From Myxococcota bacterium (GTDB lineage Bacteria; Myxococcota_A; UBA9160; PR03): 64,000 nt of DNA. Both the position numbers and the translations under genes were made by a program. Of the stretch, positions 33,735 through 53,917 are shown piece after piece (position 1 is the stretch's first letter; each line of letters begins with the position of its first letter). The notes under the pieces were generated by a model. That model did not search any database. It was given only the letters and a program-made list of their open reading frames with translations, and was not told the DNA's origin. The stretch is taken from the NCBI GenBank assembly GCA_041611735.1, contig JBFIML010000012.1, forward strand, positions 15,433 through 79,432. The letters run 5' to 3'.

Positions 33735-34082
33735 TCAGCCCCGCGCCGCCAGGTCCGGCTGCGTCGCCTCGCTGGGAGCCAGGGGACCCGCGCGGGGCTC
33801 CTCCTGGTAGCGGGCGGCCCGGGCCGGCGTCCCGGCCTCCGCCTCCTCCTCGCGGGACGCCCCGAGCAGGCGCGCCTCGTTCAGCTTGACCCAGGTGCGG
33901 GCTGCGAGGGTGAGAGCGAAGAGCAGGCACACGGCGCCGCCCAGCAGGAAGTCCCGGGGCGTGAGGCTCAGGAGGGTCGGGCTGTAGACCGTGGACATCC
34001 AGATCGCCTTCTGGGCGACGCCCACCATGACGCTGGTCCAGCCCAGCAGGATGAGCAGGTCGATCAGCGGGAGGATCGGCAC
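33735..34082 (-). CDS. hypothetical small membrane protein (3 predicted TM helices)
   Basis: 115 aa. Sequence MPILPLIDLLILLGWTSVMVGVAQKAIW..LLGGAVCLLFALTLAA.. with a charged C-terminal tail. No family recognised. Confidence 0.6.
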   Translation of the reverse strand: MPILPLIDLLILLGWTSVMVGVAQKAIWMSTVYSPTLLSLTPRDFLLGGAVCLLFALTLAARTWVKLNEARLLGASREEEAEAGTPARAARYQEEPRAGPLAPSEATQPDLAARG

Positions 34083-34147: not shown

Positions 34148-36343
34148 CTAGCCCCGGCGGCTGATCAGGATGAGAGGCGTCTCGGTCTCCCGGGCCATGG
34201 TGAGGGGCAGCGTTCCAAAGGAGCGCCGACGCCGGCCGCGCCGCTGAACCCCCATCACCACGAGGTCGCTCGCCGCGGCGTGCCCCACCAGCACCGCCGC
34301 CGGGTCGTCGGCTTCCTCCACGACCACCTCGTAGGGACCGTTCGCCTCGTCCCGGGCCAAGGCGATCACCTCGCGCTCCGCGCGACGCCGCTCCTCGGCG
34401 CTGGCCGCAGGCGACACGATGCGCAGGAAGGTCACCTTGGCCTCGCCGATGCGGGAGAGGCTGGCGAACAGCCGCGCGCGCAGGTGGCTGTGATCGCGGC
34501 GTCCGCCGAGGGGCACGAGGATCTGCTGCACCTGGGCGATCCGCCAGCGCCGAGGCGCGCGCAGGATCACCACGTCGGCCGTCACGCTCCCGATCAGCTC
34601 CTCCACCCGGCGCTCGACGCCCGGGGCCGTGAGGCGCGAGAGCCCGAGCAGCAGCGTCTCGCAGCGGTGGATCCGGGCCACGCGGGCGATCTCCGCCCAG
34701 GGATCCCGGGCCACCGTGAACAGGGTCTCGGGCGCCAGCTCGTCCACCAGGCTCGCGTGCAGGGACTCGCCCAGGATCGCCTGGGCGTCGCGCAAGGCCG
34801 GGTCGTCCTCGCCGGGGGCCTGCTCGGGCGTCTGCACCACCGAGAGCAGCAGGATGCGCCCGACCTCGGGCGTCCGCAGCGTGCCCGCCACGTCCACCAG
34901 GCTGGCGGCGCTGGCGGGATTGGCGATGGGAACCAGCACCAGGGGGCTGCGTCCGCGGAGTCGGGCCAGGTGGGGGTCGCGGGCCTCGGCGCTCGCGTCC
35001 GCCAGGCGCGCTCCAGGAGCGAGCAGCGTCAGGTACACGGCGGCGCCGACCCCGAGCCACACCGCCACGAGCCCTCCTGCCGCGGCCACGGCGAAGCCCT
35101 GGAAGAGCGCCAGCCCCAGGCACAGGGCGGCCCCCAGCAGGGGCAGCACCGGAAGCCGCAGGTCCCCGGAGCGGCGTCGCGCCAGGATCGTGGCCCAGTG
35201 CGCCATGGCGAACGAGATCAGGAAGATCAGGCTCGACGCCGCGCCGGCAGCGGCCACGTCGCCCACCACGAGGATCACGGCCGCTACGCCCGCGGCGGTC
35301 GCCGCCACCGCCAGCGCCGGCGTCCCGCTCGCGCCACGCATGCGGCCCAGCGCAAGCGGCAGCGTGCGGTCGCGCGCCATGGCGAAGGCCACCCGCGACG
35401 CTCCCAGGAGATTCGCCTGCAGGGCCGAGAGCATCGAGAGCAGGCCGGCCAGGATCACCAGCCAGTAGCCGCCGGAGCCCAGGAAGTGCTCGGCAGCCTC
35501 GGCCACCAGGCCCTCGGGGTTCGCGGCGGCCAGGCCCGCGATGCGTTCCTCGCCGGGAACGCCCACCGTCGCGATCACGAAGAGCAGCGGCAGGTAGATG
35601 GCGAGCGCGATGCCGAGGGAGAGGAACATGGAACGCGGCAGGTTGCGCAGGGGATCGCGAACCTCGCCACCCACGGCAGCGATCAGGTCGAAGCCCTGCA
35701 GGGCAATGAAGGTGTATCCCATGGCCTGCACGATCCCAGCCAGGCCGGCGGTGGCGAAGGGGTCGAGGCGGGCCAGCGACTCCGTCGCCGGTTCGCGCGC
35801 CAGGGCGAAGGCCCCGCCGACGATCAGCACCGCGAACACGATGACCTTGCCCACCGTTGCCACGCGCCCGCCCCCGCTGGCCTTGCGCACCAGCGCCAGG
35901 GTGTAGAAGCCCGTGGCAGCGAGCGCCCCCAGCAGGCGCACGCTGCGCTCTCCCAGCCAGCCCGCCTCGGAGCCCATCCCGCGCAGCAGGCGCGCGAGCC
36001 CCTCCCCGGCGAACGCCGCGAACCCGAGGGCATAGAGCACCGCGGCCATGATCGAGGCGAACCAGACCACCCAGCCCACCGTGAAGGCGACCTCCACCGA
36101 GAGCACCTTCTTGGCATAGGTGTAGGTGCCGCCGGACTCGGGGAAGCGCCGCGCCAGATCCGCGAAGCTCGCCGCCGTGATCGCTGCGATCATCCCGTTG
36201 GCCAGGAAGGCGACCATGGCAGCGGGCCCGGTGGTGGCAAAGGCGACGCCCGCCAGCGCGAGGATGCCGCCCCCCACGATGGCTCCGACGCCCACGGTGG
36301 TGGCGCCCACGAGCCCGAGGTGGCGTCCCGAAGCGGGGCTCAT
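34148..36343 (-). CDS. APC-family amino-acid permease fused to two C-terminal universal stress protein (USP) domains
   Basis: 731 aa. The N-terminal ~440 aa carry about 12 TM helices (..GATTVGVGAIVGGGILALAG..). The C-terminal ~280 aa carry two USP-like repeats (..LVLVPIANP.., ..ILVPLGGRRDHS.., ..DLVVMGVQRRG..). Confidence 0.85.
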   Translation of the reverse strand: MSPASGRHLGLVGATTVGVGAIVGGGILALAGVAFATTGPAAMVAFLANGMIAAITAASFADLARRFPESGGTYTYAKKVLSVEVAFTVGWVVWFASIMAAVLYALGFAAFAGEGLARLLRGMGSEAGWLGERSVRLLGALAATGFYTLALVRKASGGGRVATVGKVIVFAVLIVGGAFALAREPATESLARLDPFATAGLAGIVQAMGYTFIALQGFDLIAAVGGEVRDPLRNLPRSMFLSLGIALAIYLPLLFVIATVGVPGEERIAGLAAANPEGLVAEAAEHFLGSGGYWLVILAGLLSMLSALQANLLGASRVAFAMARDRTLPLALGRMRGASGTPALAVAATAAGVAAVILVVGDVAAAGAASSLIFLISFAMAHWATILARRRSGDLRLPVLPLLGAALCLGLALFQGFAVAAAGGLVAVWLGVGAAVYLTLLAPGARLADASAEARDPHLARLRGRSPLVLVPIANPASAASLVDVAGTLRTPEVGRILLLSVVQTPEQAPGEDDPALRDAQAILGESLHASLVDELAPETLFTVARDPWAEIARVARIHRCETLLLGLSRLTAPGVERRVEELIGSVTADVVILRAPRRWRIAQVQQILVPLGGRRDHSHLRARLFASLSRIGEAKVTFLRIVSPAASAEERRRAEREVIALARDEANGPYEVVVEEADDPAAVLVGHAAASDLVVMGVQRRGRRRRSFGTLPLTMARETETPLILISRRG

Positions 36344-36470: not shown

Positions 36471-37610
36471 TCACGGCCGGAAGGCCTGGATCGCCGCGAT
36501 CACCTCCCCCTGCTCGCTCTCGCCGAGGTCGGCGTACAGGGGCAGCCGCAGGAGACATTCCCCCGCGCGTTCGCTCACCGGGCAATCGCCGGCGCGGCCG
36601 CCGAAGCGCCTTCCCATGGCCGACAGGTGGAGCGGCTGATAGTGGAACACGGCCAGGATGCCCCGGGCGCCCAGATGCTCGATGAGCCGCTGGCGCACCC
36701 CGACCGACGGCAGCATCAGATGGAACAGGTGGGCGGGATGCTCGCAGTGGGGCGGCACCACGGGGAGACCGACCCCGTGCTCGCCGGCCCAGTCCGCGAG
36801 CTGCGTCCCATAGCGGTCCCAGGCCGCGGCGCGGGCGGCCTGGATCTCGTCGCGCCGCTCGAGCTGCGCATGCAGGAAGGCGGCCAGGATCTCCGCCGGC
36901 AGATAGCTCGAGCCCAGGTCCCTCCACGTGTACTTGTCCACCTTGCCCAGCAGGAAGCGGCTGCGATCCGTGCCCTTCTCGCGCACGATCTCCGCCCGCT
37001 CGATCCAGTCGGCCCGATTGATCAGGACGGCGCCCCCCTCGCCGCACGTGAAGTTCTTGGTCTCGTGGAAGCTCTGGGCCGCGAGACAACCCAGGCTCCC
37101 GAGCCAGCGCTCCTTGTAGCGCCCGAACAGACCGTGGGCATTGTCCTCCACCACCGGGACGCCGGCCTCCTGCGCGATCTCCAGGATGGCGTCCATCTCG
37201 CAGGCAACGCCCCCGTAGTGCAGGGCCACGATGCAACGCGTGCGCTCCGTGAGCTTCTCGCGCAACAGCCGCTCGTCGAGGTTCAGCGTGTCGGGTCGCA
37301 CGTCCACGAAGACGGGCCGGGCCCCGCGCAGCGCGAAGGCGTTGGCCGTGGTCACGAACGCGTACGAGGGCACCACGAACTCGTCCCCGGGCTGGAGATC
37401 CACCAGCAGCGCGCACATCTCCAAAGCGTGGGTTCCCGACGTGGTGAGCAACACCCGCTCGACCCCGAGCAGCGACTCGAGCAGCTTCGAGCAGCGCCGT
37501 GTGAACTTCCCGTCTCCCGACAGGTGCCCGGACTCGATGGCCTCCGTCACCCGCGCGATCTCGTCGCCCATCAGCGCGGGCCGGCTGAACGGAATTCGAT
37601 ACTTCCTCAC
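36471..37610 (-). CDS. wecE: dTDP-4-amino-4,6-dideoxygalactose transaminase-like (DegT/WecE family, PLP)
   Basis: ORF 36471..38210 trimmed to GTG 37610 (GTGA overlap with the upstream stop). Colinear with E. coli WecE as remembered: IPFSRP.., GDGKFTRRC, VPSYAFVTTANAF, SFHETKN (PLP Lys), REKGTDRSRF, VDKYTWRDLGSSY, FHYQPLH, LLRLPLY. 379 aa. Confidence 0.88.
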   Translation of the reverse strand: MRKYRIPFSRPALMGDEIARVTEAIESGHLSGDGKFTRRCSKLLESLLGVERVLLTTSGTHALEMCALLVDLQPGDEFVVPSYAFVTTANAFALRGARPVFVDVRPDTLNLDERLLREKLTERTRCIVALHYGGVACEMDAILEIAQEAGVPVVEDNAHGLFGRYKERWLGSLGCLAAQSFHETKNFTCGEGGAVLINRADWIERAEIVREKGTDRSRFLLGKVDKYTWRDLGSSYLPAEILAAFLHAQLERRDEIQAARAAAWDRYGTQLADWAGEHGVGLPVVPPHCEHPAHLFHLMLPSVGVRQRLIEHLGARGILAVFHYQPLHLSAMGRRFGGRAGDCPVSERAGECLLRLPLYADLGESEQGEVIAAIQAFRP

Positions 37611-38352
37611 GCTGCCTCGCCCGCATCCCCGGCCGACCAGCGGTGGTACCACAGCTCCACCGCCGTGGTCAGGAAGCCGCATCGCCCGTAGAGCCGGGCC
37701 GCCCTCACGTTGCGTCCCTGGGTCACCACCTGGGCCTCCCGGCAGCCCCGCCCTGCGAGCCAGGTCAAGGCACCGCGCAGGAGCTGCTCTCCCCAGCCTT
37801 CCCCGCGCCGGTCGGGCGCCACCGCGAAGAGCTCCACGGCCCCGATGCCGTCGTCCGCGACCTTGCACGCCAAGTAGCCGGCGGCCTTCCCCGTGGACCG
37901 CGCCACCAGCACCGCGTCCGTGCTGCCAGCAAGGCTTCGCTCGATCCACGTCTCGTAGAGGGCCGCGCAACGCTCGTCGCCGAAGTTCCCGTCGTGGTAG
38001 AAGCGCGTGTCGACGTGACTCACCCGTGCGATCTCGCGCAGGGTCGGAAGATCCTCGGGGCGGCCCGGCTCGATGCCCGACGGAAGTTCTCCCGCAACGC
38101 CCGGGATCCCACAGACCCGGGTGATGCGCACGTCCACCAAACGGAACCCGCCCTGCTCGGCGACCCGCACGCTCTCGGCGTCCTCCGCATCCGCCAGGTA
38201 GTAGACGCACTCGCCGCCCACGGCGCGGGCCCAGTCCTCGACCCCTCGAGGGTCCCCGCCGCGAGGCGCTTCGCGCACACCCGCGCGATCCGCTGTCCGA
38301 AGAACCGGGAATCCCACGGCAGCAGCCGACCGGGCGGGTCCGGCGTCGTCAC
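37607..38352 (-). CDS. wecD: dTDP-fucosamine N-acetyltransferase WecD/RffC-like (GNAT), interrupted by an apparent 1-nt frameshift near 38242-38245
   Basis: The N-terminal 37 codons (GTG 38352, GTGA overlap with the GT2 stop) read VTTPDPPGRLLPWDSRFFGQRIARV.. (WecD W-D/E-x-x-FFG motif) in the frame of ORF 38020..39498. The rest (..VEDWARAVGGECVYYLADAEDAESVRVAEQGGFRLVDVRI..GNAT core..) is in the frame of ORF 37607..38467. Adding one G to the GGGG run restores a ~248-aa protein. Confidence 0.7.
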
Positions 38353-39305
38353 CGATCGGAGCCCCGCCCCGTTTGCGCGCGGGTTGCGTAGCTGGGACGC
38401 CCCATGCTGCGCAGGTGCATGCGGGCCAGATACTCGCCCAGGATCCCCAGGGAGAAGAGCTGGGCACCGGAGAAGATGGCGATGATCGAGGCCAGGAAGG
38501 AGAAGCCCGGCACGCTGGCCCCCTCGATGACGTAGCGGCCGACCACGTACCCCAGCATCACCACCCCGAGCAGCGTGGAACCGAAGCCCACCAGGCTGGC
38601 GAGCTGTAGCGGGAAGACGCTGAAACCGGTCATCATGTTCAGCGCGTGGACGATGAGCTTGGTGACCGTGTAGTTCGATTGCCCCGACGCGCGCGGATCG
38701 TGTCGCACCTGGACTGCGGCAAAGCGCATGCTTCCCCAGGTGAGCAGCACGTCGATGTTCACGTACGGACTGGCATAGTCCGCGAAGGCCTCGCGAAGAT
38801 CGCTGCGGAAGGCCCGGAACGCACTCACCTGGCTGGCCGTCTCGGCCCCCATGGCTCCCTGGAGCACGAGCTTCGTGATGCGCGAGGCGACGCCCCTCCA
38901 CAGGCCGTGCCGCTGCCGGCCCGGGGTCCCATAGACCACGTCGAAGCCTTCCTCGAGCTTCGCGACCAGGCGGGGAATCTCCTCCGGCGGGTGCTGGAGA
39001 TCGTCGTCCATGGTGACGATTACCGGATGGCTGGCGGCGCGGATGCCACACAGGAGGGCATTGTGCTGGCCGTAGTTGCGGAGCATGCGGATCCCGTGCA
39101 GCCACGCATGCCTCTCCGCCAGCGCCTCGATGACGTGCCAGGTCCCATCCCCCGGGCTGTCGTCGTCCACCAGGATCACCTCGAACTCGGAGCTGGCGGA
39201 TTGCAGCACCGGTTCCAGGCGTTCGATCAGCTTCGGCAGGATCGCGCTGCTTTGGTAGACGGGGATCACGACACTGAGCGGACGACGCGCGGGTGTCGGG
39301 CTCAT
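38349..39305 (-). CDS. GT2 polyprenyl-phosphate glycosyltransferase (ArnC/GtrB/DPM1-like)
   Basis: ORF 38349..40304 trimmed to ATG 39305. Motifs LSVVIPVYQS.., EVILVDDDSPDG-like, NYGQHNALLCG, TMDDDLQHPPEEI. Two C-terminal TM helices (..FSVFPLQLASLVGF.., ..FLASIIAIFSGAQLFSLGILGEYL..). 318 aa. Confidence 0.85.
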   Translation of the reverse strand: MSPTPARRPLSVVIPVYQSSAILPKLIERLEPVLQSASSEFEVILVDDDSPGDGTWHVIEALAERHAWLHGIRMLRNYGQHNALLCGIRAASHPVIVTMDDDLQHPPEEIPRLVAKLEEGFDVVYGTPGRQRHGLWRGVASRITKLVLQGAMGAETASQVSAFRAFRSDLREAFADYASPYVNIDVLLTWGSMRFAAVQVRHDPRASGQSNYTVTKLIVHALNMMTGFSVFPLQLASLVGFGSTLLGVVMLGYVVGRYVIEGASVPGFSFLASIIAIFSGAQLFSLGILGEYLARMHLRSMGRPSYATRAQTGRGSDR

Positions 39306-39322
39306 CGCGGCGCTCGAGTATA

Positions 39323-40174
39323 TCACGGGCGGCACGGAGCTGAGCTTGCGACCCGCGCCACGGCCAGGCAACTCGATCCGAGCGGCAGGCGAAGACCGCG
39401 CGCAATCGCCCGGGTCTCGATTCCCAGCAACCGGTCGAGCAGGCCGGCGGCCGGGCCCGCTGGCCTGCGATGCTCGCGGGTCTCCCATTTCCGGGCATCG
39501 ACGCCGCGCCGGCCCAGACGCGTCGGCACGGTCCGGAACAGGAGGATCGGAACGGGCAGCGGCACGAAGAAGTGGGTCTGGTACTCGATCTCGAAGCCGG
39601 CCGCCCGCAGCGCCCGGGACAAGCCCCGCCCCGAGTAGCGCCGGTAGTGGCCCGCGTAGTCGTCCTCGCTCGACCACAGCCAGAGGTAGGCCGGAGCCGT
39701 CAGGTACAGCCGCGCTCCAGGCGCCATGCGCGCCCCGGTGCTTCGCAGGAATGCGACGTCGTCCGCCAGATGCTCGACGACGTCGAACAGGCCGACCGCA
39801 GAAAGGGTGCGCGGCCGGACTCCCGCATCCTCCAAGGTGGAGCACACCACGTGGGAGAGCCCACGGGCTCGCGCGTTCGCGGCGCCCTGAGGACCGGGCT
39901 CCACCAGCACGGTCTCGAAGCCGGCCCGCTCCAGGGCGAGGGCCACCACCCCATTTCCGCCTCCCACGTCGAAGATCGGCCCGGACGGGGGGAAGCGACG
40001 CACCGCCGCGACGATGCAGGCGTTGCGGTGCGCGAACCAGAAGGAGTCCCCCTCCAGCGCCAGCTTGCCCACGTTGCCGTCCTCGGGATAGGACAGCGGC
40101 GAGCGCCGCGGGGAAACCCAGACGCCGTCCTCCCGGCGCTCGAGGGCCGGTCCGATGCGGTCGAGTTCCAGCAG
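39323..40174 (-). CDS. class I SAM-dependent methyltransferase (start codon unresolved)
   Basis: Motifs ..EGDSFWFAHRNACI.. and SAM motif I IFDVGGGNGVVAL, then ..LFDVVEHL.. There is no in-frame ATG/GTG/TTG between GTG 40072 and the RND stop. However, codons 40073-40210 have coding-like GC3. CTG codons lie at 40174, 40171 and 40210, the last overlapping the RND TGA as CTGA. Confidence 0.7.
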   Translation of the reverse strand: MLELDRIGPALERREDGVWVSPRRSPLSYPEDGNVGKLALEGDSFWFAHRNACIVAAVRRFPPSGPIFDVGGGNGVVALALERAGFETVLVEPGPQGAANARARGLSHVVCSTLEDAGVRPRTLSAVGLFDVVEHLADDVAFLRSTGARMAPGARLYLTAPAYLWLWSSEDDYAGHYRRYSGRGLSRALRAAGFEIEYQTHFFVPLPVPILLFRTVPTRLGRRGVDARKWETREHRRPAGPAAGLLDRLLGIETRAIARGLRLPLGSSCLAVARVASSAPCRP

Positions 40175-40206
40175 CTGGCTCCCCCTGCGTCGTGCCCCGG
40201 CCGGTC

Positions 40207-43200
40207 TCAGCGGCCGCCACGCGCGTGGACTTCCGCTTCCAGCCCCGGGCGTCCTCGCTCCCCGAACAGGCGGCGCAAGCGGCGTTTCGCCGCGTCGGCG
40301 GCATCGTCGAAGAGCAGGTAGAACACGGGCACCACCACCAGGGTCAGCAGCATCGAGGAGAACATGCCCGCCGCGGTCGCCACCGCCATGGGGGCCCGCG
40401 ACTCGGCGCCGGGACCGAGCCCCACGGCCGCCGGCAGCACCCCGAAGATCATCGAGGTGGCGGTCATCAGGACCGGCCTCATGCGAACCGGCGCTGCCGT
40501 GCGCATCGCCTCCAGCTTGCCCATGCCTTGCGCTCGCAGTTGATTGGCGTAGTCGACCAGCAGGATCGAGTTCTTGGTCACCAGACCGAACAGGAGCAGG
40601 ATCCCGATCAGGCTGAACAGGTTGATGGTCATGCCGGCGCGGAAGAAGCTCATCACCCACAGCCCGCCCAGCGCCCCCACCATGGCCAGCGGGAGCGCCA
40701 GCATCACCGTGAGTGGATGCACCAGGCTCTCGAACTGCGCCGCCAGCACCATGTAGATCACCAGGATGCCCAGGGCGAGGGCGAGCCCGAACTGGCGCAC
40801 CCCCTCCTGCATCGCCTCCGCCTGCCCCGAGAGCTCGAGGGTCGCGCCCCGGGGCAGGACGTCCCGCGCCACCTCCTGGGCATCGGCCACCGCCTCGCCG
40901 AGGCTGCGGCCCGCGAGGTTGGCGGCGATCCCGACCGAACGCTGGCGGTTGGTGCGCGTGATCGCCGAGGGCGCCGCCCCGGTCTCGATGTGGATCAGAT
41001 TGCGCAGCTCCACAACCTCGCCGTCGCGGCCACGCACGTAGAGCCGCCCGATCGACTCGGGTTCGGCGCGATCGGCGGCGTCCAGGCGCATGCGGATGTC
41101 GTAGCGCCGGCCGGCCTCCTTGAAGACGCCCACGTCCATGCCCCCGATCATGATCTGCACCGCCTCCGCCACGCTGCGGGCGTCCACGCCGAGGGCGGCG
41201 GCCTTGTCGCGATCGGGCACCACCCGCACCTCGGGGAGGCCCAGCTTGAGGCTCGAGTTCACGTCCACGAAGCCACCCAGCGCCTCGAGCCGCCGGATCA
41301 CCCGGGCCGCCAGGGCGTCCAGCTCGGCGAGCGGCAGGTGGCCCCGCAACTCCACCTCGAAGGCGCCCGAGCGCCCGCCCGTGGAGATCATCTCGCTCGG
41401 GTTGAAGATGCGGATCTCCCGCCCCGGAACCTGTTGGAGCTCCCTGCGCGCCTCGCGGATGATCTCCATCACGCTTCGGCGCCGCTCCTCCCGCGGCATC
41501 AGATTCCCGAACAGCATGCCCTTGTTGGATGAGGCGGTCCGGGATGCCGAGTCCCCGCCGCCGCCGGACCCCGCTGCGGAGAAGAGCCCCACGATCTCGG
41601 GCTGATCCAGCATCCAGCTTTCGTCCCGCTTCAGGTAGTCGAGGGTGGCCTCCAGGGAGGTGCCGGGCGCAGCCTCGATGCGGGCGAAGAAGATGCCTTC
41701 GTCAGCCGGCGGGAAGAACTCGGTGCGGAGCTGCGAGGCGAGCGCCACGGCGCCCAGCAGGGAAAGCAGCGCGATGGCGACCGTGGCCGCGCGATGCTCG
41801 AGCGTCCAGTGCAGGAGCGTGCGGTAGCGTTGCTCCAGCCAGCCAAAGGCCTGCTCGAGCCGGTGATAGATGCTGCCGTGGGCCCGCTCGGAGGGAGGTG
41901 GCATGCGGGCCGCCAGCATGGGCGTCAAGGTCAACGCCACGAACAGCGAGATCAGCACCGCCCCCGCCACCGTAAGGCCGAAATCGCGCAGGAAGCTCCC
42001 CACCAGGCCCTGGACGAACACCACCGGCACGAAGACCGCGGCCACCGAGAGGGTGGCGGCCGTGGCGGCGAAGGCGATCTCGCGCGTGCCCTTGCTGGCG
42101 GCCTCCCGGGCGGTTTCGCCCAGCTCGCGGTGACGCTCGATGTTCTCCAGCACCACGATCGCGTCGTCGATCACCACGCCCACCGCCAGCGCCATGCCGA
42201 GCAGGGTCATCGTATTCAGCGTGAAGCCGGCCACGTACACCAGCCCGAAGGTGGTGACGAGCGACACCGGGATGGCCGCTCCCACGATCAGCGTCGGCCG
42301 TGTGCGCCGCAGGAAGACGAAGACCGTGAAGACCGCCAGCAACGCCCCGAAGGCCAGGGCGAACTCGGTCTCCGCCACGGCCTCCCGCACCCCGCGCGAG
42401 AAGTCGATGAAGCCGTCGGCGTCGTGGATGCGCAGGCCTGCGGGCAGCACGGCTTCGATCTGCGGCAACCGGCGGCGCACCTCGTCCACGATGGCCACCG
42501 TGTTGCCACCGCTCTGCTTGGTGATCCCGATGCCCAGGGACGGCTCGCCCCGATAGCGGGCGTAGACCAGCGGGTCCTCGGCGCCGTCTTCCACCCGGGC
42601 CACGTCCCGCAGCCGGACCGGCGCCCCCTCCTGCCAGGCGACCACCAGACCCTCGAGCTCCGAGACGCTCCGGAACTCGGCGTCGGTCTTGACCGCGTAC
42701 TCGACCCGGCCGCTCTCCACGCGCCCCCCGGGCACCTCCACGTGTTCGCGGCGCAGGGCCGCCAGCACGTCGCTCGCGGCGAGACCCCGCGCGCGCATGG
42801 CGTCCCCGTCCAGCCAGATGCGGATGTTGCGGTCGCGGCGTCCGAACATGGCCACGCCCGCCACGCCCGGGATCGTCTCGATCAGGGGAGCCACCTGCCG
42901 GCGCACGTACTCGCTCGCCTTCACCAGCGGCAGCTCGAGCTGGAAGGGAATCCACAGCACCGGCGAGTCGTTCGGGTTGTAGCTGGAGACCACCGGCGGA
43001 TCGAGCTGGACGGGGAGCTGGCGGCGCACCACGGCCACCTTGTCGCGCACCTCCTGGGCGACCACGTCCAGGTCGCTGCCCAGCTGGAACTCGACGACGA
43101 CCTGGGAGACGCCCCGTGCCGAGGTGGAGCGGATCGAGCGGACGCCGGCGATGGTGTTGAGCTGTTCCTCGAGGACGTCGGTCACGTCCTCCTCGATGCC

Positions 43201-43371
43201 TTCCGGGGTGGCGCCCTCCAGCGTCGCCGTGACCGTCAGCACCGGAAACTCCATGTTCGGGAACTGGTCCACGCCGAGGCGCGTGTAGCCGAGCACGCCG
43301 AAGACCAGGAGTGCGAGCGTCATCATCCAGGTGAGGATGGGACGCCGGATGGAGACGTCCGAGAGGGTCAC
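40207..43371 (-). CDS. RND efflux transporter, inner-membrane permease (AcrB/HAE1 family)
   Basis: 1054 aa. N-terminus MTLSDVSIRRPILTWMMTLALLVFG.. with the 12-TM / two large periplasmic loop organisation. GTG 43371 overlaps the MFP stop. Confidence 0.93.
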   Translation of the reverse strand: MTLSDVSIRRPILTWMMTLALLVFGVLGYTRLGVDQFPNMEFPVLTVTATLEGATPEGIEEDVTDVLEEQLNTIAGVRSIRSTSARGVSQVVVEFQLGSDLDVVAQEVRDKVAVVRRQLPVQLDPPVVSSYNPNDSPVLWIPFQLELPLVKASEYVRRQVAPLIETIPGVAGVAMFGRRDRNIRIWLDGDAMRARGLAASDVLAALRREHVEVPGGRVESGRVEYAVKTDAEFRSVSELEGLVVAWQEGAPVRLRDVARVEDGAEDPLVYARYRGEPSLGIGITKQSGGNTVAIVDEVRRRLPQIEAVLPAGLRIHDADGFIDFSRGVREAVAETEFALAFGALLAVFTVFVFLRRTRPTLIVGAAIPVSLVTTFGLVYVAGFTLNTMTLLGMALAVGVVIDDAIVVLENIERHRELGETAREAASKGTREIAFAATAATLSVAAVFVPVVFVQGLVGSFLRDFGLTVAGAVLISLFVALTLTPMLAARMPPPSERAHGSIYHRLEQAFGWLEQRYRTLLHWTLEHRAATVAIALLSLLGAVALASQLRTEFFPPADEGIFFARIEAAPGTSLEATLDYLKRDESWMLDQPEIVGLFSAAGSGGGGDSASRTASSNKGMLFGNLMPREERRRSVMEIIREARRELQQVPGREIRIFNPSEMISTGGRSGAFEVELRGHLPLAELDALAARVIRRLEALGGFVDVNSSLKLGLPEVRVVPDRDKAAALGVDARSVAEAVQIMIGGMDVGVFKEAGRRYDIRMRLDAADRAEPESIGRLYVRGRDGEVVELRNLIHIETGAAPSAITRTNRQRSVGIAANLAGRSLGEAVADAQEVARDVLPRGATLELSGQAEAMQEGVRQFGLALALGILVIYMVLAAQFESLVHPLTVMLALPLAMVGALGGLWVMSFFRAGMTINLFSLIGILLLFGLVTKNSILLVDYANQLRAQGMGKLEAMRTAAPVRMRPVLMTATSMIFGVLPAAVGLGPGAESRAPMAVATAAGMFSSMLLTLVVVPVFYLLFDDAADAAKRRLRRLFGERGRPGLEAEVHARGGR

Positions 43372-44540
43372 GGGCTCGCCGGTCCTTCGGGGGCCCCGGC
43401 GCGGCTCACCGCCTCGCCGGCCGCGCCCGACGCGGGGGGCTGCTCGAGCAGGCGCCCCGCGGCGTCGCGCAGCGAGACCGGCGAGCCGTCCACGAGCTGG
43501 TCGTGGCCGCGCACCACCACCACGTCGCCCACCGCGAGGCCCTCGCTGACCTCGACCAGGCCCTCCCGGAAGACGCCGAGCCGCAACACGCGGCGCTCGG
43601 CGCGGGAATCGTCCGCCAGCCGAAAGGCCACCGACCCGTCGGCGCGTTGCAGCACCGCCTCCTCGGGGACCATCGCCACGCCCTGGCGCAGCGAGATGCC
43701 GAGGTCGACCCGTGCGAAGAGGCCGGGCCGCAGGCGCCCGTCGGCATTGGGCAGCAGGGCCTTCACTCGCAGCGTGCGCGTGGCGGGATCGATGGTCGGA
43801 GAGACGACGGTGACCTCGGCGCGGAACACCTGATCCGGAAAGGGCGACACGCGCACGTCCACCGGGGCACCTCGGGCGACCCGGCTCGAGTCCCGCTCGG
43901 CCAGGTGGAACTCCACCTCGATCGGATCGAGGGCGACCAGGTCGAAGAGCTTCGCGCCGAGCGTGACGAACTCGCCCTCGCTGACCCAGCGGCGGGAGAC
44001 GAGACCGGCAAAGGGCGCCGCCACGCTGGAGTCGCGCAGCGAGCGCCCGGCGATCCCCAGCTGCGCCACGGCCGCGTCGCGGCGTGAGCGCGCCAGGCGC
44101 AGCTGCGTCTCGGCCGCGTCCAGCCGGGCGTCCGAAGCCACCCCCTCCTGGTGGAGCTTGCGCATGCGGGCCAGCTCCCGCTCGCTCTCTCCGAAGCTGG
44201 CCCGCGCCTCCGCCAGCCGCGCCCGGGCGTCCGCCAGCTCGAGCTGCCGCTTCTCGGGGTCGATCTCCATCACGACCTGACCCGCGGCGACGGCATCTCC
44301 TTCGCCGTGCACCACCCGCGTCACCTGCCCCGCCAGCTGGGCCGCGACCGTCGCCGCGTCCCGGGCGCGCAGCTCGCCGGTGGCCTCGATGCGCTCCTCG
44401 AGGCGGTGGGCCTCGACCCGCTGCACCAGCACCGGGGGCGCCACGAACGCCGAGGACCCGGTCTCGCCGCCACAGGCGACGAGGCCGCGCGCCGCCAGGG
44501 CGAGCACGGCGAGCCGGACGGCGCGCCTCCCCGCCCTCAT
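43368..44540 (-). CDS. RND efflux periplasmic adaptor (MFP/HlyD family) lipoprotein
   Basis: ORF trimmed to ATG 44540 (ATGA overlap with the TetR stop). Lipobox ..ARGLVACGG. Coiled-coil hairpin, barrel-sandwich motifs (..APFAGLVSRRWVSEGEFV..). 390 aa. Confidence 0.9.
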   Translation of the reverse strand: MRAGRRAVRLAVLALAARGLVACGGETGSSAFVAPPVLVQRVEAHRLEERIEATGELRARDAATVAAQLAGQVTRVVHGEGDAVAAGQVVMEIDPEKRQLELADARARLAEARASFGESERELARMRKLHQEGVASDARLDAAETQLRLARSRRDAAVAQLGIAGRSLRDSSVAAPFAGLVSRRWVSEGEFVTLGAKLFDLVALDPIEVEFHLAERDSSRVARGAPVDVRVSPFPDQVFRAEVTVVSPTIDPATRTLRVKALLPNADGRLRPGLFARVDLGISLRQGVAMVPEEAVLQRADGSVAFRLADDSRAERRVLRLGVFREGLVEVSEGLAVGDVVVVRGHDQLVDGSPVSLRDAAGRLLEQPPASGAAGEAVSRAGAPEGPASP

Positions 44541-45160
44541 CGGCGGACCCCCGACGTCTCTACGGCCTGGCGCACGAAGCTGCGCAGCAGCGCATCGACG
44601 CCTGCCTCGAGCAGCTCCGGGGCCCACTCGAGGTCGGTGCGGGTGGTGCGGAGCAGGATGAAGCCGTGGAGGAATGCCCAGAAGGCCTGACGGGCCACCG
44701 TGCGGTCCGCAGACAGACGGCCCTGGGCGGCGAGCCGGTCCCACGGATGCTCGAGCAGGGCGCGGGCCTTCTCCGCCGAAGGCGGTCGAGCGCACGACGG
44801 CGCACGGGGCGCCGCCAGGAGGGCGTAGTGCGTGGGATGGCGCAGCCCGAAGCGGGCGAAGACCCGGCACATGGCCCGCACGTTCTCCACCGGGTCGTCG
44901 CCCAGCCGGATCCGTTGCAGACCCGCCACGAGGCCCCGGCAGCGCTCCTCCAGCAGGGCGTCCAGGAGACGCTGCTTGTCCCCGAAGTAGTGGTACAGGG
45001 TCGGCGCCCTGACGCCGCAACGCTCCGCCAGGCGGCGCATGGAGAAGCGCTCGCCCCCGTCCTCCACGAGCAGCGCCTCGCTGGCGTCCAGGATGGTGCG
45101 CCGGGCCTCGGCGCGGCGCTTGGGTCGGCGTCGCCGGGCGGCGGGCAACAGGTTGGCCAT
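44537..45160 (-). CDS. TetR/AcrR family transcriptional regulator
   Basis: 207 aa. N-terminal HTH: RRTILDASEALLVEDGGERFSMRRLAERCGVRAPTLYHYFGDKQRLL. Confidence 0.92.
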   Translation of the reverse strand: MANLLPAARRRRPKRRAEARRTILDASEALLVEDGGERFSMRRLAERCGVRAPTLYHYFGDKQRLLDALLEERCRGLVAGLQRIRLGDDPVENVRAMCRVFARFGLRHPTHYALLAAPRAPSCARPPSAEKARALLEHPWDRLAAQGRLSADRTVARQAFWAFLHGFILLRTTRTDLEWAPELLEAGVDALLRSFVRQAVETSGVRR

Positions 45161-45187
45161 GGGGAGTCTCGTCCGGAAGGATCTCGA

Positions 45188-45202
45188 TGTATAACGCCGT
45201 TA
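45188..45202 (-). promoter_or_regulatory. candidate TetR operator / -10 region (palindrome TAACG-C-CGTTA overlapping TATACA)
   Basis: A perfect 11-bp palindrome at 45192-45202, 32 nt upstream of the TetR ATG. On the minus strand it abuts a TATACA -10-like hexamer (45193-45188). It is an AT-rich island in GC-rich DNA. Confidence 0.4.
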
Positions 45203-45646
45203 GAGGTGGCGCAGCGTACGGGAAGCAAGCGGTCGCGGTCAAGCGGGGCGGGGAACGCCGCGCGGTGAGGAAAGAGTTTTCCCTTCGAGGAACGAGGCTT
45301 CCCCCTGGACCCCCGGGCCATCCTCCCCGCCTCCGCTCAACCCCCTGATTCTCTGAGAGTCGACGCCTGGCGCGGAGTTGGTATCCGAATTGCGTATCTT
45401 CGCGTGCGTCTCGAGGGGAAGGAGTGCCCGTGCGCCGAGCCCTGCTCGTCGCGGTCGCTGCTCGCGGTCTCTGCGTGGCCAGGTCCGCCCGGGCCGTCCA
45501 GGTCGATCCGAGCCGATTCCGAGCCAGCCGGGACCCCCTTCCACTGCACCGGCTCCAACCAGCTCCAGGGTGATTCCGATGCTGGCGAGGGCAGCGGCAT
45601 CACGTCCAATGCCATTAGAACGCCGCCGCAATCAACTCCACGAGGA

Positions 45647-47017
45647 GTGCGTGCGCGGGGTGCCCCCACGCCTACGCTTGGCGAAGCCCTGCGAACCTGG
45701 AGCCGCGTGGCCCTCCAGAGCTTCGGCGGGCCCGCCGGGCAGATCGCGGTCATGCACCGGATCCTCGTGGAGGAGAAGCGCTGGGTGAGCGAGGAGCGCT
45801 TCCTGCATGCGCTCTCCTACTGCATGCTGCTCCCGGGCCCGGAGGCGCAGCAGCTCGCCACCTACCTCGGATGGCTCCTCCATCGCACGCGCGGCGGGCT
45901 CGCGGCCGGAATCCTCTTCGTCCTGCCCGGCTTCGTGACGATCCTCGCCCTGAGCCTCCTCTATGCCGCCTACGGCGACCTTCCCCTGGTCGAGGGAATC
46001 TTCTTCGGGATCAAGCCCGCAGTGCTGGCCCTGGTGCTCGAGGCGCTGCTCCGCATCGGGCGGCGCGCTTTCGGACATGGGGCACAGGTGGGGATCGCCG
46101 CCGCCGCGTTCGTGGCCATCTTCTTCCTGGCGGTCCCCTTTCCGTGGATCGTCCTCGCGGCGGGGCTGGTGGGGCTGGTGGGCGCACACGCGCTGCCGGA
46201 GGCCTTCCGCGGCCCCCGGCCCCAGGCACCGGCGGTCGCGAACCCCGTGGTGGATGCCGTGCTCGATCGGCAGACACCGGATCACACGCGCCCGACGCTG
46301 CGCCGGACCCTCGGCGTCGCGTCGGTCTGCCTCGCGCTCTGGTGGGTGCCCGTCGCGACGCTCGCGATCACCCGAGGCGCCGACGACGTCTTCACCCGCA
46401 TCGGCGTCTTCTTCAGCAAGCTCGCCGTCGTGACCTTCGGCGGCGCCTACGCCGTCCTGGCCTACATGGCCCAGCAGGCCGTCGAGACCTACGGCTGGCT
46501 GGAGCCGGGGGAGATGCTGGACGGCCTCGGCATGGCGGAAACCACGCCCGGACCGCTCATCCAGGTGGTCCAGTTCGTGGGCTTCCTGGGCGCCTACCGC
46601 AGCCCCGGGGAGCTCGAGCCGTGGCTCGCGGGCACGCTGGCCGCCGTCCTCACCACCTGGGTGACCTTCGTGCCGTGCTTCCTCTGGATCTTCCTGGGGG
46701 CCCCCTACGTGGAGCGGCTGCGCGAGAGCCGTGCCCTGCGCGGCGCCCTCGCCGGGATCACGGCAGCCGTGGTGGGGGTCGTACTGAATCTCGCGGTCTG
46801 GTTCTCGCTGCACACGCTGTTCGGGAGCGTGGTCGAGCACCGCCTCGGCCCTCTCCTCCTCCAGGTGCCGGTGTGGGCCACCCTCGACGCCGCCGCGGCC
46901 GCAATCGCCCTGGGCGCCGCCGTCGCGACGCTCCGGCTCCACGTGGGGATGCTCCCCCTGATCGGCGGCTGTGGGGGCCTCGGCGTGCTCTGGCGCCTCT
47001 TCGGCCCGGGGTCGTGA
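45647..47017 (+). CDS. chrA: chromate ion transporter (CHR family, two-domain ChrA)
   Basis: Motifs ..LGEALRTWSRVALQSFGGPAGQIAVMHRILVEEKRWVSEERFLHALSYCMLLPGPEAQQLATYLGW.., and a second CHR repeat ..VVTFGGAYAVLAYM..GMAETTPGPL.. The start is uncertain. GTG 45647 is chosen. The ORF-track start at 45404 adds 81 low-GC3 codons unlike any ChrA N-terminus. Confidence 0.85.
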   Translation: MRARGAPTPTLGEALRTWSRVALQSFGGPAGQIAVMHRILVEEKRWVSEERFLHALSYCMLLPGPEAQQLATYLGWLLHRTRGGLAAGILFVLPGFVTILALSLLYAAYGDLPLVEGIFFGIKPAVLALVLEALLRIGRRAFGHGAQVGIAAAAFVAIFFLAVPFPWIVLAAGLVGLVGAHALPEAFRGPRPQAPAVANPVVDAVLDRQTPDHTRPTLRRTLGVASVCLALWWVPVATLAITRGADDVFTRIGVFFSKLAVVTFGGAYAVLAYMAQQAVETYGWLEPGEMLDGLGMAETTPGPLIQVVQFVGFLGAYRSPGELEPWLAGTLAAVLTTWVTFVPCFLWIFLGAPYVERLRESRALRGALAGITAAVVGVVLNLAVWFSLHTLFGSVVEHRLGPLLLQVPVWATLDAAAAAIALGAAVATLRLHVGMLPLIGGCGGLGVLWRLFGPGS

Positions 47018-48154: not shown

Positions 48155-48247
48155 CACCCCCCCTGCGGCCGGCCGGAGCCTGACCGAGTCTACCGGAGGG
48201 GTCCCGCGCCGAAAGCTCTGCCCCACGGGCTTCGTTATGCTGGGCGC

Positions 48248-48643
48248 GTGGGGTTGCCCCGTCGCCTCGCGTGGTCGGTGCTCGTCCTGGCCCTGCTCGG
48301 GACGAACCTCTCCCCCTGTCCCGAGGCTCCCGTGCGAGCGCCCGCCCCAGGGTCCCACGCCCACGCGGGCCCGGCTTCCCCCGTCCACGGCGAGAGCCGG
48401 GAAGCGCTGCCCTCCCATCCACCCGGTTGCCAGGAAGCGCGAACGGTCGCCCTGGGCGCGCCCTGCCCGTGCGGCTGCGAGGACCGCGAGCCGGCTTCTC
48501 CCGCCGGGCCGCTCGGCGACGCCTTGCTGGCCTCCCTGCCGGGACTCGAGCTGCAGCCCCCGGCACGACCGCAGCGGGCCGAGCTCACGGACGTCCGGGA
48601 CGCCCCCCTCCGGCACGACGACCCCGTGCCACGGGCGGCCTGA
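48248..48643 (+). CDS. small exported Cys/His-rich protein (CPCGC motif), putative metal-binding
   Basis: The 3' part of ORF 47777..48643, from GTG 48248 (or TTG 48254). Signal-like GLPRRLAWSVLVLALLG, then SHAHAG..VHG..SHPPGC..GAPCPCGCEDRE..ALLASLPGLELQPPARP. GC3 is high. It is divergent from 47393..48154. No SD is evident. Confidence 0.45.
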   Translation: MGLPRRLAWSVLVLALLGTNLSPCPEAPVRAPAPGSHAHAGPASPVHGESREALPSHPPGCQEARTVALGAPCPCGCEDREPASPAGPLGDALLASLPGLELQPPARPQRAELTDVRDAPLRHDDPVPRAA

Positions 48644-48760
48644 CCCTTCCGCGTTGCACCGGGCCGTCCGGTCCGACCACCGGCACGCCTGGCTTCCCAT
48701 GGCTCGAACCCGCGCGCACGGGCCCGCTCCGACGAGGTGCGTGGCCTGGAGGCAACACAC

Positions 48761-49766: not shown

Positions 49767-50276
49767 GTGTTGCGTCTGCTGGCGAGCGCCCTGCTGATCC
49801 TCGCTGCGGAGGCCGCGGCCCAGCCGCTCCAGCTCGAGAGCCTCGACGGCGAGCCCGTGACGCTCGGACTGCGCGAGGCCGAGAAGGCCCTGGTCGTCCA
49901 CTTCTGGGCCACCTGGTGCCCGGAGTGCGTCGAGGAGCTTCCCGTGCTGGCCGCGGCCCTCCACCGCTGCGCCGCAGGCCCGGTGCGCATCGTGACGGTG
50001 AACGTGGGCGAGAGTCGGGATGCGATCGTCCGCTACCTGGAGCGCCAGGGCCTCCAGCTCCCGGTCCTGCGCGACCCGCGCGGCCGGGTCTGGCGCAGCC
50101 TCGGCGGCCTGGGGCTGCCCACCAACCTGGCCTGGACGCCCGCGGAGCGGCGCATCGACGTGGGCCCGCGCGACGCCCCCGCCTGGGACGAGGCCTTCAC
50201 GGGGCTGGGCTGTCCGCCGCGGGACGCGGACGCTGCCGGCAGGCCGCCCGCGACCCCCCCCGAACGGGTCCCCTAG
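49767..50276 (+). CDS. periplasmic TlpA/ResA-like thiol:disulfide oxidoreductase (thioredoxin fold)
   Basis: GTG 49767, 1 nt after the barrel stop. Signal peptide MLRLLASALLILAAEAAA. Active site VVHFWATWCPECVEELP. Downstream ..LGLPTNLAW.. carries the cis-Pro. 169 aa. Confidence 0.85.
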   Translation: MLRLLASALLILAAEAAAQPLQLESLDGEPVTLGLREAEKALVVHFWATWCPECVEELPVLAAALHRCAAGPVRIVTVNVGESRDAIVRYLERQGLQLPVLRDPRGRVWRSLGGLGLPTNLAWTPAERRIDVGPRDAPAWDEAFTGLGCPPRDADAAGRPPATPPERVP

Positions 50277-52714: not shown

Positions 52715-52900
52715 GGGGGGTCTCCGCTGCGGGGTCCCAGGAGCCGGGAGCTGCCCGGCTTCTCCACCCGCGACGAGCCCGATCCTACCACCGCAGCCGG
52801 CCGGAGCCGAAGCCTCCGATGGAGAGGGGCGGCAGCGCGTCCCCGCCTCGCGTGTGCCAGCCAGGCCCAAGGCCCGACCGCAGCCGCCAGGACCCTTGAC

Positions 52901-53917
52901 TCACCAGCGATTGCGGGCCTCTTCGGCCCAGCCGAGCAGTCCGTCGACGGCGAGCGTCATGCCGTCCTCCAGCTCCAGTCGCCCCTCCCAGCGTCCGAAG
53001 CACTGGTGCACCTGCGTCGACAAGAGGCCCAGCCTCGTCCGAGCGTGGCGGTCGTGGTGCGGGGTCAGCGTTACGTCGATCCGCCTGGAGTCGGGCGTCC
53101 GCACCCGCCAGGGACCCAGCGGCGCGTCCCAGTCGTACTCCCAGATCAGCTCCTCCGAGATCTTGTGGAGCCGGCCGTCGATGCACAGGGCGTTCTCGGT
53201 GAAGCCGGTGCCCTGGGTCCACTTGCCACCCAGCTGGAGACCGATCGTGTGCCCGTCGCTCGAGCCGGATGCCGATCCCCAGTTCCAGCGCGTGGCATAG
53301 GGCCAGATCCCGCGACCGAAGTCCAGCGTGCCGTAGGCTCCGCTGTGCGGTCCCAGGCGATGGACACTCTGCCCGATGCGGAGCGTGCCTGCCGCGGGTC
53401 GCGTATTCTGCTTCGAGGTGTACTGGAACCGCCGCGGGCTCCAGGGAATCACCACGCCCAGGGATTCGTGGCCGGCGGGCCGCTGGACGAAGAGGTCGAC
53501 CTCGATCGCGCCGTGACGCCGATGGGAGGCTCGCGCCGAAAGCCCGGTGCCCTCCGGGTGCTCCGCGATGTGCAGCAGCAGGTCCCGACTCGTGTAGCGC
53601 GTCTCGCCCACGTCGGCGCGGTCCGCCAGGCGGAACCCCCGCGCGAAGGGGACCCGGGCGACGCGCTCGATCTCGACCCCGGAAGCCCGCTCGAGCACCC
53701 ACAGGGCCGCCACACCCAGGTAGTCCACATCCGCATAGGTCAGGGCAACCACCAGATCGTCGCTGGTCACGCACCAGTAGTCCCAGCGCTTCTTGCGGCC
53801 CGGGGCGCCGCGCAGGTTGGCCCGGTGCAGGGGCACGCGCGACCAGCCCCGGGCACGAGGGTTCAGCCGGCCGCGCGCGTCGCACAGCTCGACCGGCTCG
53901 GTGATCTCGGGCTCCAT
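52901..53917 (-). CDS. DUF2804 family protein
   Basis: Motifs ..RKKRWDYWCVTSDDLVVALTYADVDYLG.., ..RWNWGSASG.., C-terminal ..GWAEEARNRW. Start is ATG 53917 (alternatives ATG 53944, TTG 53980). No signal peptide seen. Confidence 0.75.
   Translation of the reverse strand: MEPEITEPVELCDARGRLNPRARGWSRVPLHRANLRGAPGRKKRWDYWCVTSDDLVVALTYADVDYLGVAALWVLERASGVEIERVARVPFARGFRLADRADVGETRYTSRDLLLHIAEHPEGTGLSARASHRRHGAIEVDLFVQRPAGHESLGVVIPWSPRRFQYTSKQNTRPAAGTLRIGQSVHRLGPHSGAYGTLDFGRGIWPYATRWNWGSASGSSDGHTIGLQLGGKWTQGTGFTENALCIDGRLHKISEELIWEYDWDAPLGPWRVRTPDSRRIDVTLTPHHDRHARTRLGLLSTQVHQCFGRWEGRLELEDGMTLAVDGLLGWAEEARNRW

Follow-up and report, generated by a model that had tools for sequence, protein, structure and literature searches.

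The seven minus-strand genes at positions 36471-45160 of a 64-kb stretch of DNA from a Myxococcota bacterium (hereafter the window, by which we mean the whole stretch that was analysed; GC content 72%, 54 gene calls) encode a TetR-controlled RND efflux pump and, directly behind it, a cassette of sugar genes whose logic resembles that of the enterobacterial Arn system. A preliminary description of the locus had taken them for one transcription unit that runs without a break and couples efflux to envelope remodelling in a response akin to arn-mediated polymyxin resistance. Judged by gene order in relatives, we consider it rather probable that pump operon and sugar cassette are two separately conserved modules, which in this lineage are direct neighbours on the strand that carries most of the genes. 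The pump appears ordinary; the new part is the Arn-like cassette, which is widespread and uncharacterised.

Coding regions were delimited from a phase plot of codon-position GC (GC3), and families were assigned with Pfam and NCBIfam profiles. The plot resolves seven consecutive coding regions on the minus strand, with which both profile collections concur, and the head-to-tail arrangement and family assignments of the preliminary description hold for all seven. In the order of transcription the features are:

45192..45242, minus strand: candidate promoter and operator of the pump operon, read from the sequence, with a putative function
44537..45160, minus strand: TetR-family regulator of 207 amino acids (aa), with Pfam domains TetR_N and TetR_C_33
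43368..44540, minus strand: RND periplasmic adaptor (MFP) of 390 aa, TIGR01730 at 264 bits against a cutoff of 94.9
40207..43371, minus strand: HAE1-type RND permease of 1054 aa, ACR_tran at 921 bits over its full length
39323..40174, minus strand: class I S-adenosylmethionine-dependent methyltransferase of at most 283 aa, Pfam Methyltransf_23
38349..39305, minus strand: ArnC-like polyprenyl-phosphate GT2 of 318 aa with the motif DDDLQH and two C-terminal transmembrane helices, from Pfam, NCBIfam and alignment to PDB structures
37607..38352, minus strand: WecD-like two-domain N-acetyltransferase split over two frames, GNAT family, best match WecD
38241..38244, minus strand: frameshift site in the wecD-like gene, GGGG within CTCGAGGGGTCGAGG, from comparison of frames with relatives
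36471..37610, minus strand: WecE-type pyridoxal phosphate-dependent aminotransferase of the DegT family, 379 aa, from NF008687, TIGR02379 and PDB 4PIW

The evidence for two modules comes from the neighbourhoods of both in other genomes. More than 8000 homologs of the GT2 were scored, the top 120 of which are 64-71% identical to it, and gene neighbourhoods were compared at 83 related loci (GT2 identity 59-71%), 56 of them with at least 3 kb of sequence upstream and at least 4 kb downstream, and at 88 loci for the pump junction. The closest relatives of the GT2 and of the pump are both found in metagenome-assembled genomes (MAGs) of Myxococcota. Orthologs of the RND permease are many and 75-78% identical, and in the three orthologous loci inspected (L097, L098 and L099; 76-78% identity) the genes of a regulator with a TetR_C_33 domain, the MFP and the permease form compact units whose stop and start codons overlap or are closely spaced. 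None of these three has sugar genes after the pump; what lies 3' of the permease gene differs each time, being convergent nitrile-hydratase genes, a SurE gene behind a gap of 390 nt, or a convergent unknown gene. Conversely, the pump junction of the window recurs in none of the 88 relatives of the cassette, and an RND gene of any kind lies near the GT2 gene in only 4 of the 56 loci. Since pump orthologs occur without the sugar genes and cassette relatives without this pump, a functional coupling of the two is unsupported. Synteny between them is thus lacking in both directions, and the idea of one coupled envelope-remodelling and efflux response did not survive the comparison. The adjacency appears to be lineage-specific and is most likely incidental, and any expression of the sugar genes from the pump promoter may be read-through and not conserved design.

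The pump itself appears to be an ordinary TetR-autoregulated efflux operon of the MFP-RND (HAE1) type that would be served by a promoter and operator of its own. A putative promoter composed of TTGACC (45237-45242), an 18-nt spacer and TACGCT (45213-45218) can be read upstream of tetR, and downstream of it stands the palindrome TAACGGCGTTA (45192-45202), which is unique in the window. In this family of pump operons an operator-like palindrome, TAACGNCGTTA or GAACGNCGTTC, is conserved upstream of tetR (orthologous loci L099 and L097), where it follows the putative -10 box and precedes the start codon of the regulator gene. Likewise kept in the orthologs are the first two gene overlaps, ATGA at 44537-40, where the MFP start lies over the tetR stop, and GTGA at 43368-71, where the RND start lies over the MFP stop. 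In its TetR, MFP and RND genes, its overlapping stop and start codons, its operator-like palindrome at the promoter and its conservation as a unit the operon is like those of the AcrR-AcrAB type, from which it differs in that the regulator gene is co-directional and the first of the operon and in that no gene for an outer-membrane factor lies nearby. In agreement with the preliminary description, Pfam scans of the window, which took in the 48 largest of the 54 gene calls and left out six small ones of 72-237 aa, detected neither RmlA/B nor a GT-C transferase, a flippase or an outer-membrane factor (OEP family), so that none of the scanned window genes would provide the pump with its outer-membrane component.

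Could the seven genes nevertheless be a single TetR-controlled operon that couples efflux with periplasmic decoration of the envelope in an arn/polymyxin-like stress response? We regard this as quite unlikely. The genes do share a strand and are separated by short gaps in which no terminator was detected, and the junction between the RND and methyltransferase genes is real, as nine independent metagenome assemblies contain it without change or with no more than one mismatch. However, the minus strand carries 48 of the 54 window genes, and 21 of the 44 same-strand neighbour pairs are 35 nt or less apart, unrelated pairs such as secA/argJ and rseP/tsaB included. Seven head-to-tail genes with short gaps are no more than the default of this genome, which is why their co-orientation and the gap of 32 nt that separates the RND stop from CTG 40174 say little. 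As had been stated before, no terminator hairpin is apparent: at four junctions none was found and folding energies do not differ from those of shuffled sequence, and Rfam models, run against all 64 kb, gave no element at the junctions. A promoter consensus was not found there either. At 72% GC scans for terminators, promoters and folding have low power, and their null results therefore are no evidence for an operon. Co-transcription of pump and sugar genes in this organism is possible. A coupled response would moreover have to operate with a first sugar gene that lacks a canonical start codon, with a frameshifted wecD-like gene, and in a 64-kb stretch in which Pfam scans show no GT-C transferase, flippase or deacylase. 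Nor does a deacylase recur near the cassette elsewhere, so that the sugar would be expected to be N-acylated and not cationic. In favour of a joint response, an RND pump and an Arn system are reported each to protect Dickeya against zeamines (PMC10632790).

The junctions themselves were in part as described. Of four 4-nt overlaps that had been reported three are confirmed, the two within the pump operon and GTGA at 37607-10, where the aminotransferase start lies over the acetyltransferase stop; the fourth, at 38349-52, does not stand as such, since its GTG opens a frame of just 110 codons. The gap of 17 nt between the methyltransferase and GT2 genes was found as reported. An in-frame GTG at 39326, which is used by gene call P0361, is an alternative GT2 start and would give a GTGA overlap on the methyltransferase stop; the ATG at 39305 is favoured because the extension from GTG 39326 contains a rare ATA codon. 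The extended -10-like sequence TGATATACT at 39317-39326 of the minus strand was considered as an internal promoter in this gap and is kept merely as a lead. It is the sole match to TGNTATAMT in the 64 kb (0.04 expected), for a pattern that was set after the site had been seen, and it stands 12 nt before the GT2 ATG and overlaps the possible GTG start.

A further observation bears on the link between cassette and pump. In one Myxococcota clade (L011 and L014-L016) a string of genes divergent from the cassette encodes a GT-C-like polytopic protein, in some of the loci an FGE-sulfatase-like protein, and then an MFP and an RND permease; in L011 (1771-9854) the GT-C-like protein has 657 aa and no Pfam match and is followed by the FGE-sulfatase-like protein, MFP and RND. 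A single coupled system would draw some support from this MFP-RND pair beside the GT-C-like neighbour of the cassette. The pair is not orthologous to the pump of the window, the RND proteins being only about 24% identical and of different subfamilies. Two independent RND adjacencies in about six Myxococcota lineages have a P of about 0.04, a value that derives from an assumed rough density of RND genes and is far from proof. That the pathway is repeatedly wired to MFP-RND transporters in Myxococcota seems to us very unlikely.

The sugar cassette, by contrast with its junction to the pump, is recurrent. Its GT2 family occurs in at least ten phyla (Myxococcota, Planctomycetota, Chloroflexota, Acidobacteriota, Verrucomicrobiota, Cyanobacteria, Gemmatimonadota, Abditibacteriota, Omnitrophota and Proteobacteria), and the order GT2, acetyltransferase, aminotransferase on one strand recurs in the 83 related loci, where a stop codon often overlaps the next start. 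Of the 56 loci with sufficient flanking sequence, 40 have an aminotransferase gene near the GT2 gene, 40 have an acetyltransferase gene there, and 52 have at least one of aminotransferase, acetyltransferase and formyltransferase. A methyltransferase is less constant (24 of 56) and belongs to any of three unrelated families in variable position. The closest cassettes (66-71% identity; L094, L095, L096, L100 and L101) have the order methyltransferase-GT2-acetyltransferase-aminotransferase, GT2-acetyltransferase-aminotransferase or aminotransferase-acetyltransferase-GT2, with no pump nearby. In 4 of the 83 loci, for example L045 and L062, a two-domain formyltransferase (Formyl_trans_N and Formyl_trans_C) by its position replaces the GNAT protein; formyltransferase variants are seen in L045 (5604-6539), L062, L088, L089 and L059, and in L045 a different small methyltransferase follows. 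Directly upstream of the cassette in L052 (334-2384) and L069 (6761-8724), a Verrucomicrobiaceae and a Gemmatimonadaceae MAG that both carry the methyltransferase family of the window, lie genes for RmlA and RmlB that pass the NCBIfam equivalog cutoffs. Finally, a polytopic protein of 380-900 aa with at least seven transmembrane segments is encoded near the GT2 in 39 of the 56 loci (about 70%). Its genes cluster just upstream of the GT2 gene, 22 of them within 1 kb and 11 more overlapping or directly abutting it. Of nine such neighbours tested two (L082 and L054) passed the cutoff of Pfam PMT_2, a GT-C family, one gave a weak match, and the others matched nothing or only TPR.

A second, soluble GT2 of about 250-260 aa, which is 73-78% identical between phyla, is encoded within a few kb of the cassette in Planctomycetota and others (L012, 9199-9981; L013, 9172-9921; L020, L024, L026 and L082).

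The family assignments of the GT2 and the aminotransferase of the window cassette are well supported. The GT2 had been described as an ArnC/GtrB-type enzyme with a C-terminal transmembrane pair, and this is confirmed. Its residues 8-309 are colinear with residues 8-311 of solved ArnC, the best PDB match (163 bits; GtrB 121 bits), and two hydrophobic segments that would form the C-terminal pair are predicted. The motif DDDLQH aligns to 100-DADLQN-105 of ArnC and is present as DDDLQ[HNT] in all 83 relatives. Of the catalytic, nucleotide-binding and undecaprenyl phosphate-binding residues of ArnC (bioRxiv 10.1101/2025.01.29.634835), D48, N77, D100, D102, Q104, R137, R205 and S210 are aligned to identical residues of the GT2; R128 falls in a gapped stretch of the alignment, with R130 and R132 nearby, and E19 is a serine. 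The best NCBIfam match, the ArnC equivalog NF007986, is reached with 179 bits against a cutoff of 529, and the relative in L011 scores similarly (183). The aminotransferase likewise proved to be of the predicted WecE type: it scores 518 bits with the WecE equivalog NF008687 (cutoff 375) and 477 with TIGR02379 (cutoff 435), and 391 bits with E. coli WecE (PDB 4PIW) as compared to 155 with ArnB. It thus passes both a model for the galacto product (NF008687, Fuc4N) and one that is described as gluco (TIGR02379, Qui4N). Its start at GTG 37610 is supported by the model alignment, which begins at residue 5. The environmental pmrF2 and pmrF3 genes that have been assayed previously (PMC9927302) were considered as characterised members of the GT2 family and ruled out, being only 30% identical to this GT2.

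Is the GT2 then devoted to the product of the aminotransferase and acetyltransferase, or does it form one of the common lipid-linked sugars, for instance Und-P-Glc, Und-P-GlcNAc or Und-P-Ara4FN (Und-P, undecaprenyl phosphate), and merely share a glycan locus with them? JGI annotations name the GT2 homologs "ArnC" and the acetyltransferase homologs WecD (rffC), and 16 of the 56 loci lack an adjacent aminotransferase and 16 an adjacent acetyltransferase, although only 4 lack all of aminotransferase, acetyltransferase and formyltransferase. Sequence does not distinguish UDP from dTDP donors, and an attempt to tell them apart by the nucleotide-contact residues of ArnC was not decisive. Yet in at least ten phyla the three genes lie tens of nucleotides apart, often with overlapping codons, and where a formyltransferase occupies the acyltransferase position, GT2 and aminotransferase are retained. 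Moreover, the score of the GT2 is far below the ArnC cutoff, and profile scans revealed no genes of the ArnA, ArnB, ArnD or ArnT type in the window. We therefore consider a common sugar as the product to be unlikely.

The tight linkage of GT2, acetyltransferase and aminotransferase, the RmlA and RmlB genes upstream of the cassette in relatives and the GT-C-like neighbours instead make an Arn-like pathway for a lipid-linked amino sugar plausible, and the WecE-type aminotransferase together with the linkage to RmlA/B points to a dTDP-6-deoxyhexose rather than to UDP-arabinose. We suggest the following route. RmlA and RmlB encoded elsewhere in the genome would supply dTDP-4-keto-6-deoxy-D-glucose, from which the transaminase, assigned above to the WecE family, would produce dTDP-4-amino-4,6-dideoxyhexose. 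The WecD-like GNAT protein would N-acetylate the amino sugar and in doing so pull the transamination equilibrium forward, a formyltransferase taking its place in some relatives, and the variable methyltransferase probably modifies the sugar. The ArnC-like GT2 would then move the N-acyl sugar onto undecaprenyl phosphate on the inner side of the membrane. For the expected Und-P-(N-acetyl-4-amino-4,6-dideoxyhexose) an [M-H]- near m/z 1032.7 is calculated from C55H91O4P plus C8H13NO4. After flipping, an enzyme of the GT-C fold, which is encoded beside the cassette in most relatives and not in the window, would pass the sugar to an acceptor in the envelope. UXS- or ArnA-C-like dehydrogenases were considered as a recurrent partner (cluster c9) and rejected, the cluster being a mixture of SDR proteins that includes true RmlB; an aminoarabinose (Ara4N) route finds no support in it.

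The sugar probably stays N-acylated, as no recurrent deacylase was seen. Because of this, and because nothing else predicts a cationic sugar, the charge-based analogy to polymyxin resistance is weakened, and the preliminary description finds no support on this point. Nor is lipid A likely to be the universal target, since the cassette is also common in Chloroflexota. Taken together, we tentatively propose, as a reading whose chances fall only a little short of even, that the cassette and the adjacent GT-C-like proteins constitute an undescribed three-component pathway of many phyla, with a polyprenyl-phosphate N-acyl-4-amino-4,6-dideoxyhexose (acetylated or formylated, and sometimes methylated) as donor and an envelope acceptor beyond lipid A alone.

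Several observations weigh against two independent modules or against this pathway. The gap between the RND and methyltransferase genes contains no detectable terminator, so that co-transcription with the pump is conceivable, and the second, independent RND adjacency is mildly suggestive in that it leaves room for a non-random link between cassette and RND transporters in Myxococcota. The GT2 scores below the ArnC cutoff and the acetyltransferase below that for WecD (see below), and donor sugar and lipid acceptor of the GT2 are inferred for the family as a whole. The window contains no small flippase of the GtrA or EmrE type, and no recurrent cluster of small proteins with four transmembrane segments was found among the relatives; a 115-aa open reading frame (ORF) at 33735-34082, examined as a candidate flippase, has two hydrophobic segments only and no Pfam match. 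A deacylase was not found among the recurrent neighbours of the cassette, although it was not specifically searched for. The absence of GT-C and rmlAB genes, finally, applies to the 64-kb window, the rest of the genome being unseen.

How does the proposed pathway compare with known systems? With Arn (PmrHFIJKLM; ArnB, ArnA, ArnC, ArnD, ArnE/F and ArnT of enterobacteria) it would have in common a route in which transamination and N-acylation of a 4-keto sugar nucleotide precede the loading of the sugar onto undecaprenyl phosphate by a GT2 of the ArnC type and its use by a GT-C enzyme. As further likenesses, GT2 and ArnC are colinear, and some variants of the cassette contain a formyltransferase. 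Different from Arn, however, the aminotransferase is of the WecE type (dTDP-6-deoxyhexose) and not ArnB, the acyltransferase is a GNAT protein where Arn has the ArnA formyltransferase, the cassette is associated with neither an ArnA decarboxylase nor an ArnD deformylase nor ArnE/F, the window has no ArnT, and the occurrence in Chloroflexota means that lipid A need not be the target. The Fuc4NAc branch of enterobacterial common antigen synthesis in E. coli (RmlA/B, WecE, WecD and WecF) resembles the cassette in its aminotransferase, which passes the WecE cutoff, in the two-domain architecture of WecD and in the RmlA/B genes that are adjacent in two relatives. There, however, the cytoplasmic WecF uses dTDP-Fuc4NAc directly on the Und-PP-linked lipid II, whereas the cassette partner is a GT2 of the Und-P monophosphate type; no WecF, WecA or WecG is encoded near the cassette, and the acetyltransferase reaches 89 bits as compared to a WecD cutoff of 219. 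With three-component periplasmic glycosylation systems (GtrA/B/C, FlmF2/NaxD/FlmK, LgmA/B/C and PpgS/Rv3779), which also comprise the pentofuranose systems of PMC11127046, the cassette shares the encoding of a polyprenyl-phosphate GT2 and a GT-C protein together, as in 39 of the 56 relatives. Its donor would differ from theirs in being a 4-acylamido-4,6-dideoxyhexose that has nucleotide-sugar tailoring genes of its own; a small flippase or a deacetylase conserved with the cassette was not seen, and the window has the GT2 arm only.

The copy of the cassette in the window carries two lesions, and the claim that the locus runs without a break has to be revised accordingly. The first concerns the start of the methyltransferase gene. 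Between the RND stop and GTG 40072, the first canonical start, there is no ATG, GTG or TTG, and the start at 40174 that had been reported is a CTG, with a second CTG at 40171. The closest methyltransferase homologs (45-52% identity) share an N-terminal block, G.W......SYP..GN....FWF.HRN, which here lies upstream of GTG 40072, the initiator methionine of the homolog in L058 aligns to CTG 40174, and the GC3 coding signal runs on to about 40200. It would appear that the methyltransferase gene either starts at a CTG or has lost its start codon.

The second lesion is in the wecD-like gene. From the GTG at 38352, placed over the GT2 stop, runs a frame for the conserved WecD N-terminus (LLPWDSRFFGQRIARV...) that ends after 110 codons at 38020-22, whereas the GNAT domain is in another frame, within an ORF at 37607-38467 that ends in TGA (37607-37609). 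The window copy thus does not hold its N-terminal and GNAT domains in one intact ORF. Joining the frames at GGGG (38241-38244) gives a WecD-like composite of 248 aa with a frameshift of 1 nt, and with one G added the gene would again be a single ORF, equal in length to those of relatives; intact relatives have 240-255 aa. With the frame so corrected the earlier assignment as a WecD-type acetyltransferase stands: residues 11-238 of the composite align end to end with residues 21-235 of E. coli WecD (2FS5), the spacing between the WD and CVY motifs is exactly that of intact relatives, and the composite matches the WecD equivalog NF008212 over positions 10-231, albeit with 89 bits below the cutoff of 219 (the intact relative in L011 scores 95).

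It might be argued that frameshift and missing start are errors of sequencing or assembly and that both genes are intact in the organism, the more so as the frameshift falls in a G homopolymer within a region of 72% GC. We think this extremely unlikely. The frameshift is not an assembly artefact, as the same sequence is present in 10 independently assembled runs and no intact near-identical allele was found in a search of 5.8 billion proteins; gene calls on 113 contigs give the truncated product of 223 aa, in three alleles. The exchange of ATG for CTG, moreover, is a substitution and not a homopolymer error.

But could the local cassette still be fully functional? This would require that the methyltransferase is initiated at CTG and that the acetyltransferase is made by -1 slippage on G_GGG or is active as a truncated GNAT protein from GTG 38317, 38278 or 38221. 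We consider this possible but rather doubtful. The Shine-Dalgarno-like sequence GGGGGAG (40179-40185) is strong and lies 4-7 nt ahead of both CTG codons, yet CTG initiates poorly in bacteria. The G before the GGG codon would allow the tRNA to re-pair in the -1 frame, but programmed frameshifting at this site was judged unlikely, as neither a canonical slippery heptamer nor a stimulatory structure is present. A GNAT-only version of 174 aa exists in L013, whereas all of the 119 non-self homologs among the matches listed, which are at most 59% identical to the composite, have 230-272 aa and nearly all cover at least 92% of it, the N-terminal domain included. A coding signal in GC3 extends across both lesion regions, and GT2 and aminotransferase are intact in at least 77 contigs; of all genes in the block, those of methyltransferase and acetyltransferase score lowest per residue in codon usage. 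With its two lesions, the output of this copy is probably reduced or altered. Given also that no GT-C, flippase or rmlAB genes were found in the 64 kb, the sugar module of the window may be impaired; it may also depend on genes located elsewhere, on initiation at CTG and on an acetyltransferase that is truncated or arises by slippage.

Some further features surround the two modules. A gene at 34148-36343 (minus strand), 127 nt downstream of the aminotransferase gene and present in all Logan assemblies of the locus, encodes an APC-family amino-acid permease of 731 aa fused to one or more Usp domains. On the other side, a gap of 546 nt (45161-45706) separates tetR from a divergent chromate-transporter gene; this gap and another of 603 nt (48158-48760) are unusually long non-coding stretches for a genome as compact as this, and neither has an Rfam match. 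A poorly characterised run of genes at 50273-58446 encodes a DUF6351 tannase-like protein, a DUF2804 protein and two tandem DUF3604 paralogs of 741 and 738 aa, and L101 likewise has a DUF3604 gene close to its cassette. The uppS gene for undecaprenyl-diphosphate synthase (18529-19245) is 19 kb away in a standard rpsB-tsf-...-uppS-dxr-rseP housekeeping cluster and is not part of the finding.

If the junction between pump and cassette were a designed operon, it would represent a new way to couple efflux with envelope remodelling; the comparative evidence says that it is not. The interest of the locus lies in the cassette. Lipid-linked donors known so far carry Glc, GlcNAc, GalNAc, Ara4FN, GalA, Man or pentofuranoses. 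The preliminary description had not recognised an Und-P-linked Fuc4NAc-type donor as a described pathway, and in the full text of open-access papers we likewise found no described Und-P-linked Fuc4NAc or Qui4NAc donor. The label "ArnC" that many homologs of this GT2 carry is misleading, as in surveys of environmental resistomes it suggests aminoarabinose and resistance to polymyxin. Once sugar and acceptor are identified, the list of lipid-linked donors would gain a new member and many annotations would be corrected.

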